Shown here one piece after another: positions 23,458 through 24,075 of a stretch of 45,044 nucleotides of DNA (positions within the stretch are counted from its first letter, which is position 1; every line of letters begins with the position of its first letter). A model generated the notes under the pieces. That model worked only from the letters and a program-made list of their open reading frames with translations. It ran no database searches and was not told where the DNA came from. The translations under genes and the position numbers were made by a program. Origin of the DNA: a virus (taxonomy: Duplodnaviria > Heunggongvirae > Uroviricota > Caudoviricetes); IMG/VR virus record IMGVR_UViG_2718217859_000007; one strand, given 5' to 3'.

Positions 23458-24075
23458 ATGTCCTTTTTCACACACCTGTATAAGGATATTTATATGCCCA
23501 GCCGCACAATAATAAAATTTCTGATTATATCTTTATTCGTTATATTAGTTTTATTGTCAATCATATATATAGCAAGAACTCCGGCCAGACTTGATATGAA
23601 TGACGTCGCTGAAATTAACCAGAAGCATCAGCTTATTTTTCTCATCAGACACGGAGAACGATGTGATCGCTCCACAAATATATGTCTGTCAGAACGTGAT
23701 GGCATCACAATAAATGGAGCCAATAAAGCTCAACAATATGGAAATGCATTCAGCAAAATGTTTCCAGACTACGGTCTCTATTCAACAGATACAGTCCGAA
23801 CGATACAGACAGCCTCTTTTTTTTCGGGTGGAAAAACAGCAACCATTCCTGATATTTCAACCTGTGATGATGACGCAGTAAACAACATACTGGAAATATC
23901 ACAATCTGATAATATTACTGTAATTTTCACACATAACCACTGTCTGTCGAAAATTGCAAAAAAGATGAACGGCTGGAGATTTAAACCTGATTATATGGAT
24001 ACACTGGTTCTTCATCGGGAGAATCACAATCTGGTTCTTGACGGATATTCAAAACCGAACGATTTTATCCAGTAA
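23458..24075 (+). CDS. Ais/PmrG-like histidine phosphatase (LPS core heptose(II)-phosphate phosphatase homolog)
   Basis: RHGERCDRSTNICLSE, DTVRTIQTASFFSGGKT, TVIFTHNHCL, FKPDYMDTLVLH match recalled E. coli Ais motifs; N-terminal hydrophobic segment; AT-rich plus-strand gene in a minus-strand late region; start may be Met13 (23494). Confidence 0.65.
   Translation: MSFFTHLYKDIYMPSRTIIKFLIISLFVILVLLSIIYIARTPARLDMNDVAEINQKHQLIFLIRHGERCDRSTNICLSERDGITINGANKAQQYGNAFSKMFPDYGLYSTDTVRTIQTASFFSGGKTATIPDISTCDDDAVNNILEISQSDNITVIFTHNHCLSKIAKKMNGWRFKPDYMDTLVLHRENHNLVLDGYSKPNDFIQ

Follow-up and report, generated by a model that had tools for sequence, protein, structure and literature searches.

How would a gene that faces the late operon of a lambdoid prophage be expressed in the lysogen, and what would its product do there? 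The question is raised by an open reading frame (ORF) of 205 amino acids at positions 23458..24075 (plus strand) of the IMG/VR virus record IMGVR_UViG_2718217859_000007, a stretch of 45,044 nucleotides that is referred to here, at its full length, as the window. The window is a lambdoid prophage of Escherichia, mosaic in its make-up and terminating in a lambda-type integrase, so that the initial annotation was right to call the gene prophage-borne. The ORF exists exactly as that annotation described it: plus-strand and AT-rich (GC content of 0.365-0.39 across the ORF, as against ~0.47-0.55 in the flanks), it is the sole plus-strand gene amid the minus-strand run of the late region, where it is convergent to Rz. 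We lean, on sequence evidence, towards the view that it is a lysogenic-conversion gene (moron) in the slot that lambda uses for bor, wired to the host PmrAB system and encoding an enzyme that dephosphorylates the lipopolysaccharide (LPS) core; substrate, regulation and phenotype are predictions. The predicted and conserved PmrA-type promoter is the new result; of the points made here it is the one of greatest interest and the one most open to a direct test.

The assignment of the product to the Ais/PmrG family of histidine phosphatases, as a true member with an intact catalytic core, is supported by several comparisons. The NCBIfam model NF011945 / PRK15416 (LPS core heptose(II)-phosphate phosphatase) is matched at 213.7 bits, the cutoff being 142, with residues 17-197 on profile positions 13-197 of 201. 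The Pfam model PF00300 His_Phos_1 gives 26.5 bits (cutoff 21.7) over the N-terminal third of the profile only. Several blocks matching E. coli Ais were pointed out in the initial annotation, and the pairwise alignment bears this out: BLASTP against K-12 Ais (b2252, from NC_000913) yields 48% identity and 65% positives over 156 amino acids (E 1e-50), the common blocks being RH(G/A)ERCDRSTN-CLS, GIT, TVRTIQ(T/S)A, IFTHNHCL and FKPDY. The resemblance is far from confined to the RHG motif, and the catalytic residues have not been lost.

Residue conservation was read from an alignment of 56 family sequences and is numbered here on the 193-residue form of the protein that begins at ATG 23494 (see below). 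Invariant in all 56 are H53, R56, C57, D58, R59, G70-I71-T72, R102, Q105, H147, H149, C150 and Y167, while R52, E55 and C64 are conserved in at least 90%. The RHGxR motif expected of a histidine phosphatase is present as RHGER at residues 52-56 (R52 H53 G54 E55 R56; 23647..23661, plus strand). In a profile search of solved structures, this RHGE and the downstream RTIQTA align to their counterparts in fructose-2,6-bisphosphatase, and R102 within RTIQTA (23797..23799, plus strand) is the second phosphate-binding arginine. A candidate for the second active-site histidine is found in H147-N148-H149 (the THNH motif; 23932..23940, plus strand). The histidine-phosphatase pocket, consisting of the RHG motif, a second arginine and a second histidine, can thus be traced in full, the second histidine by superfamily pattern only.

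Comparison of the protein sequence with PDB chains gave no match at E up to 10, and no solved Ais/PmrG structure was found. An AlphaFold (AF2) model built on the family alignment has a predicted local distance difference test (pLDDT) score of 94.1 and a predicted template modelling (pTM) score of 0.88. The top Foldseek matches of this model are all histidine phosphatases: phosphoserine phosphatase, RosC, SixA and the C-terminal domain of MutT1. Normalised to the target, the TM-score is highest for the compact SixA (0.70). Model and matches agree in placing the protein in the alpha/beta fold of the histidine phosphatase superfamily. The model also shows an N-terminal hydrophobic helix, residues 4-27 (23503..23574, plus strand; sequence K-FLIISLFVILVLLSIIYIA-RTP), which is a putative export signal or signal-anchor. 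It has no obvious AXA cleavage site and probably anchors the protein in the membrane. The invariant C57 and C150, together with the strongly conserved C64, fit a periplasmic domain held by disulfide bonds.

The region upstream of the gene carries what appears to be a promoter of the PmrA/BasR type. The predicted box, CTTAAG-gatta-CATAAG (23427..23443, plus strand), is composed of two hexamer half-sites 5 bp apart and has one mismatch to YTTAAK-N5-YTTAAK: half-site 1 is the canonical CTTAAG, and half-site 2, CATAAG, deviates at position 2. In verified Salmonella boxes the half-sites, CTTAAG and XTTAAT, are likewise 5 bp apart, and the footprinted pbgP box of Klebsiella pneumoniae has CCTAAG as its half-site 2 (PMC3973317), which differs at the same position as that of the window. 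Exactly 10 nt after the box lies a -10 hexamer, AATAAT (23454..23459, plus strand), and there is no -35 element, as in an activator-dependent layout. The predicted site is therefore correctly placed relative to the -10 element for a member of the PmrA regulon.

Seven diverged lineages, six of prophages and one of IncF plasmids, have kept the box, between -64 and -71 relative to the ATG. In the lineage of the window (with loci L001 and L021-L023) it reads CTTAAG-gatya-CATAAG at -67, followed by AATAAT; in that of the Stx1 phage GER2 (L002, with L024-L035) it reads CTTAAG-gatta-CATAAG at -64, again with AATAAT. The lineage of L013-L015 and L047 has ATTAAT-tgcct-CATAAG at -67 and TATAAT as the -10 hexamer, and that of L010-L012 and L034 has CTTAAG-gatty-YTTAAK, without any mismatch, at -70 and AATAAT. 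Two further forms are GTTAAG-atttc-CTTAAT at -64 with CATAAT (L016, L017) and GTTAAG-atttt-CTTAAT at -69 with TATATT (L036-L040, L046). The 10-nt spacing and a hexamer of the type nATAAT/TATATT are kept in these six prophage lineages; the IncF plasmid copies of the prophage clade have ATTAAG-cgtta-TTTAAG at -71, with CAGTAT 12 nt downstream. With the box as anchor, the half-sites of the seven lineages average 0.79 in pairwise identity and the -10 element 0.75, as compared with 0.50 for the spacers and 0.31-0.34 for the 40 nt on each side, the flanking DNA of these lineages being unalignable.

A composite score, in which box, 10-nt gap and TATAAT are evaluated together at every position on both strands (out of 18), singles out the same place. 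The site upstream of the gene reaches 16/18 and is the unique maximum of the 45-kb window; its counterpart is also the unique maximum in all eight other loci scanned (16-17/18). At other positions, in the window and in these loci, the best score is 13-15. The promoters of host PmrA targets are built similarly. K-12 arnB has CTTAAG-gttaa-GTTAAT, 10 nt and TAAAAT; K-12 waaH has CTTAAT-agttt-CTTAAT, 10 nt and TAAAAC, with the box at -65 from the ATG; K-12 eptA has a perfect box at -63; and Salmonella pbgP has a perfect box, 10 nt and TAGGGT. That the prophage promoter was copied from present-day chromosomal ais or pmrG was considered and rejected, since those genes carry weak proximal boxes.

The promoter bears on the choice of start codon. 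The true start is most likely ATG 23494, giving a product of 193 amino acids, rather than ATG 23458, because several lines of evidence converge on it. ATG 23458 has no counterpart in several homologues, whereas common to all of them is a methionine just ahead of a Lys/Arg-rich and then hydrophobic stretch, which in the window corresponds to ATG 23494. The start chosen by the Prokaryotic Genome Annotation Pipeline (PGAP) for a 93%-identical E. coli protein, WP_089624690.1, is at the equivalent position, and a Shine-Dalgarno sequence, AAGGA (23482..23486, plus strand), can be read 7 nt before it. Furthermore, ATG 23458 falls within the predicted -10 element at 23454-23459. With the -10 element there, transcription would start near 23466, downstream of ATG 23458, which is independent support for the later start. 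The coding sequence of the Ais/PmrG-like histidine phosphatase is thus placed at 23494..24075 (plus strand), on the basis of family models, homologue starts, the AF2 model and the substitution rates described below.

The position of the gene is that of a moron. Lambda bor lies 31 bp from Rz and is convergent to it (NC_001416 annotation), and so the phosphatase gene occupies the same slot, which is the classical moron position invoked in the initial annotation. On the lysis side are found, all on the minus strand, the Rz-like spanin gene Rz (24148-24585; PHROG match at 4e-72) with Rz1 embedded in it (24201-24392; 1e-26), the endolysin gene (24674-25171; 8e-69) and the holin gene (~25171-25386; 5e-35). 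The other side, also minus-strand, begins with a 50-amino-acid small lipoprotein ORF (23273-23425; phrog_7528) that is divergent from the phosphatase gene and has the lipobox LLAGC; it is followed by a phrog_1935 ORF (22803-23150; PHROG assignment), the gene for the small terminase subunit (21950-22498; PHROG assignment) and then that for a gpA-type large terminase subunit. A location between the lysis cassette and cos had been proposed. The first half of this holds, in that the gene adjoins Rz; the lambda cosN 12-mer is absent from the interval between Rz and the small terminase gene (22.5-22.8 kb searched) and cos was not located, and the gene is better described as lying between Rz and the small terminase gene.

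The arrangement is general. Every one of the 30 loci from prophages or viruses has the gene 55-90 bp from the final lysis gene and convergent to it, whether that neighbour encodes Rz, a GH108 endolysin or an M15 peptidase. The other flank varies as well, with packaging modules of either the Nu1/gpA type or the ParB-TAGT-Terminase_2 type. The lipoprotein ORF partners the phosphatase gene in most, not all, loci. ORFs of phrog_7528 also occur in phiP27 and in an Actinobacillus phage, there without the phosphatase gene. In upwards of 100 phage records the match is confined to one flank, that of Rz or that of the lipoprotein ORF, and the phosphatase gene is missing. The gene thus shows both marks of a moron: it is inserted between genes that are neighbours in related phages, and its base composition deviates. 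Between the convergent stop codons of the phosphatase gene and Rz lies a hairpin, AGCCAGC-aattaa-GCTGGCT (24125..24144), that is terminator-like on both strands (-14 kcal/mol; z = -3.45 against shuffled sequences) and has weak T-tracts; it is a candidate bidirectional terminator. With the predicted conserved promoter upstream and this stable hairpin with its weak T-tract downstream, the gene may form an expression unit of its own.

Where does such a gene come from? A neighbour-joining tree of 113 database homologues has two groups: the Ais/PmrG orthologues on the chromosomes of Escherichia, Salmonella and Citrobacter, and a second, very diverse clade, whose members are mostly named E. coli. 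The window protein falls inside this second clade, with whose members it is 40-99% identical; to chromosomal Ais/PmrG it is 40-48% identical. Judged by the tree, the window gene is a member of a mobile-element-borne paralogue family, not a chromosomal orthologue. Three deep branches of the clade are found in lambdoid prophages, between lysis and packaging genes. Another branch, P0070, is a cluster of 1,403 sequences and belongs to IncI1-type plasmids, where its place is in the rci-traE-traF-X-traH-traI-traJ-traK-nuc region; by tblastn, 1,438 plasmid records, most of them conjugative, have homologues, annotated traG in some. The IncI1 traG slot itself encodes an Ais-like histidine phosphatase (L007-L009; gene at 5001-5585 of L007). 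In two more branches the paralogue is directly downstream of an EAL-domain gene (L004-L006; L018-L019). One of these sets is on a plasmid-like contig, next to a gene for a serine-protease (SPATE) autotransporter, and one copy of it has an IS21 helper-ATPase gene; the other set is beside a chaperone-usher fimbrial operon. No box of the PmrA type was found at the IncI1 traG or EAL-adjacent paralogues.

Pairwise ratios of nonsynonymous to synonymous substitution (dN/dS) among the prophage lineages are 0.16-0.27 at dS 0.65-1.1, and the gene is therefore under purifying selection. A reading as a pseudogene was rejected on these values and on residue conservation. Of 5,426 complete E. coli genomes, 82 have a copy of the prophage clade at the nucleotide level, among them those of O104:H4 outbreak strains and of porcine enterotoxigenic E. 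coli (ETEC). In the O104:H4 genome NC_018658.1 the gene is at ~2,551,650-2,552,250. IMG/VR holds 22 further loci, one of them protein-identical, and a scan of genome contigs, with one genome per species, gave a sole locus, in Dryocola. Two copies in IMG/VR are frameshifted (L041, L042), and a plasmid copy, L048, is truncated and has lost the PmrA-type box. The gene is essentially invisible in isolated-phage collections: a single homologue, that of the Stx1 phage GER2, is found among 50,697 deposited phage genomes, and PHROGs has no family for it (best E-value 0.058). In the GER2 record (MG710528, 6087-6668) the deposited call is a 90-amino-acid fragment, named 'LPS core heptose(II)-phosphate phosphatase'; the full 193-amino-acid ORF is intact there, with its PmrA-type promoter. 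GER2 also carries stx1AB.

The following scheme would account for these features. Lambdoid late genes are silent in lysogens. With the late promoter off, the phosphatase gene would be transcribed from its own promoter, against the direction of the late operon. Fe3+, Al3+ or mild acid would be sensed by BasS/PmrB of the host, and BasR/PmrA, once phosphorylated, would bind the predicted box. The N-terminal helix would export the phosphatase or anchor it at the periplasmic face of the inner membrane, where the histidine of the RHG motif would attack a phosphomonoester of the inner core of LPS, the phosphate of heptose II being the likeliest target. Removal of core phosphate is expected to lower negative charge and metal binding, so that the prophage would add to, or strengthen, the envelope remodelling that the host controls through PmrA, to the benefit of the lysogen. 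According to Nishino et al. 2006, cited in PMC8129183, PmrG dephosphorylates heptose II of the LPS core and PmrA controls the modifications that change the charge of LPS. Deletion of chromosomal pmrG left polymyxin B resistance unchanged in PmrA-constitutive E. coli (PMC8129183). A polymyxin phenotype is for this reason the least likely of the three consequences put forward for the gene (LPS remodelling, peptide resistance and phage exclusion) and is not expected by default.

Several observations speak against this scheme or parts of it. The PmrG equivalog model NF052369 is matched at 117 bits, below its cutoff of 170; since the protein also belongs to a separate clade, it is not filed as PmrG, and its substrate could differ. 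K-12 ais and Salmonella pmrG, the chromosomal relatives, have weak proximal box matches (in Salmonella 10/12 at -62). A generic sigma-70 scan did not call the promoter; this is expected of a scan that requires a -35 element, yet it is not positive evidence. QseB, a closely related regulator, might recognise sites of this kind. Finally, the large terminase gene is frameshifted and the element may be defective, though a conversion gene would be unaffected by this.

Among other explanations, the one that keeps enzyme family and regulation and changes the selected role comes first, even if we hold it to be unlikely: the phosphatase would edit a receptor, an altered inner core excluding superinfecting phages or the thin pili of IncI-type plasmids. 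To our knowledge, no phage or pilus requires heptose II phosphate specifically. In favour of receptor editing, the wider clade is almost wholly on mobile elements (prophages, the IncI1 traG slot, virulence-type plasmids). IncI thin-pilus specificity depends on recipient LPS, and traG proved dispensable for transfer of the IncI1 plasmid pESBL in a transposon sequencing (TnSeq) study (PMC4288162), which fits an accessory or exclusion role. Conditional expression under PmrA would be an odd design for a standing barrier, and the plasmid paralogues, being without the box, may not share one role with the prophage gene. In a broader and more doubtful version, the Ais-like phosphatases of prophages, IncI1 and virulence plasmids would together form a mobile-element toolkit for editing inner-core phosphate, serving signal-dependent masking of receptors against phages and conjugative pili rather than metal or peptide resistance; the prophage would have recruited PmrAB to time the masking. 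A periplasmic histidine phosphatase acting on something other than the PmrG substrate is unlikely in our estimate, the candidates being heptose I phosphate or pyrophosphoethanolamine, lipid A 1-diphosphate, or a phosphoester outside LPS. The missed equivalog cutoff, the moderate identity to Ais/PmrG and the distinct clade would all be compatible with it, as would a fold known for substrate promiscuity, with Foldseek matches ranging from SixA to phosphoserine phosphatase. The residues that are invariant in both clades go well beyond the catalytic core, however (C57, D58, R59, G70-I71-T72, Q105, F110, C150, L151 and Y167), which suggests a shared substrate pocket, and regulation of the PmrA type fits a function in LPS charge.

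It is quite improbable that the box is not a PmrA site, and that the gene is constitutive or answers to another regulator, the TTAAG/TTAAT repeats being AT-rich promoter sequence or the ribosome-binding site of the lipoprotein ORF. TTAA-type words arise easily in AT-rich DNA, and half-site 1 in the window does overlap the probable Shine-Dalgarno sequence of that divergent ORF. A mere ribosome-binding site was nonetheless rejected, because the box is kept where the lipoprotein ORF is more than 170 bp away (L010, L013) or absent (L016, L037, L046). In addition, the composite site is the unique maximum of every scanned locus, and the 5-bp and 10-nt spacings are fixed while the neighbouring sequence has diverged down to ~32% identity. 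Least of all do we believe in a decaying, non-functional passenger of a defective prophage. The frameshifts in the large terminase gene and in L041 and L042, and the truncated plasmid copy that lost its box, would be in line with decay. Against it stand an intact ORF with all conserved residues, purifying selection, a conserved promoter and the presence of the gene in E. coli genomes that include the O104:H4 lineage. The reading as a PmrAB-wired conversion gene acting on core phosphate is thus the one that we prefer.

Part of this was already known: PGAP names these proteins, and one phage record, GER2, carries the name. No publication was found that deals with an Ais/PmrG carried by a prophage, or with prophage genes controlled by PmrA/BasR, in a literature that lacks most subscription journals, so that the absence is not proof. 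The phosphatase gene is, as far as its sequence goes, an unstudied instance of an Ais-family enzyme, of a bor-slot moron and of a host-regulated conversion gene. In the gut, it is the PmrAB programme that controls how well Fe3+/Al3+ and cationic peptides are tolerated. If the proposal is true, some E. coli prophages add an LPS-core phosphatase under host-signal control to PmrAB envelope remodelling, and the carriers comprise prophages of the O104:H4 outbreak lineage and of porcine ETEC and an Stx1 phage. It would also provide a clean example of a phage conversion gene with a near-consensus site for a host two-component regulator. The findings draw attention to unstudied Ais paralogues on IncI1 and other plasmids, and to the fact that automatic annotation transfers the exact PmrG function to paralogues, which the curated equivalog model does not support.

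Other features of the prophage may be recorded here. The gpA-type large terminase gene (20063-22020, minus strand) is frameshifted at a T-run (CACTTTTTTGTGC), the junction being near 20506-20548; against an intact homologue, residues 1-491 are in frame -3 and residues 475-638 in frame -2. Either the prophage is defective or the homopolymer was misread in sequencing. The IMG/VR contig L021 is 99.95% identical, with two indels across the common 11 kb. The likely start of the holin ORF, M-K-S-M (25377-25386, minus strand), resembles the dual-start (holin/antiholin) motif of lambda S. Just upstream of holin, a TerB-domain gene (25648-26001, minus strand; Pfam TerB, 29.9 bits; phrog_632 'tellurite resistance', category moron) is another accessory gene of the late region. 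Between the Q antiterminator gene (28936-29757) and the lysis cassette are genes for tRNA-Gly(TCC) and tRNA-Thr(TGT) (27170-27323, minus strand), a pair that is also present in related E. coli prophages (L001, L047). An AT-rich ORF of 239 amino acids (27977-28696, minus strand; GC ~0.38), between Q and these tRNA genes, has no Pfam match and is a candidate further moron; at about its position, related prophages (L010, L046) have an AraC-family regulator. The early region contains a hok/sok-type toxin-antitoxin locus, marked by the sok antitoxin RNA (Rfam RF01794; 31787-31962, minus strand; 115 bits against a gathering score of 59).

How does the prophage gene compare with known systems? Its product shares with chromosomal Ais (b2252)/PmrG the NCBIfam subfamily, the size, an N-terminal export sequence, the RHGERCDRS, RTIQTA and THNHC motifs and the cysteines, and both the chromosomal genes and the prophage gene are linked to PmrA/BasR, in the latter case by prediction. 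The differences are that Ais/PmrG adjoins the arn operon whereas the prophage gene is a paralogue on a prophage, that Ais has a signal peptide whereas the N-terminus of the prophage protein looks like an uncleaved anchor, and that the near-consensus proximal box of the prophage gene has only weak counterparts at K-12 ais and Salmonella pmrG. IncI1 TraG (R64/pESBL traE-traF-traG-traH) belongs to the same mobile-element clade, is ~41-46% identical and is likewise accessory; its gene lies inside a conjugation operon on a plasmid and has no PmrA box, unlike the prophage gene. With the host promoters of arnB/pbgP, eptA/pmrC and waaH/yibD the prophage promoter has the box sequence in common; the 10-nt gap to the -10 element is shared by arnB and waaH, and a box ~63-70 nt before the ATG by eptA and waaH. 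What sets it apart from these is its prophage location and the fact that its PmrA dependence is predicted.

As to phage genes, lambda bor occupies the identical slot, convergent to the late operon, and in both cases expression from the prophage would not depend on late transcription and the product would alter the envelope. Bor, however, is an outer-membrane lipoprotein unrelated to the phosphatase, and the promoter of the latter appears to depend on a host two-component regulator. The gtrABC (O-antigen glucosylation) and oac (acetylation) genes of temperate Salmonella and Shigella phages are prophage genes that chemically edit the LPS of the lysogen; they act on O-antigen, with exclusion or serotype conversion as their presumed role. 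The prophage phosphatase, in contrast, would act on inner-core phosphate and appears to be regulated by a signal.

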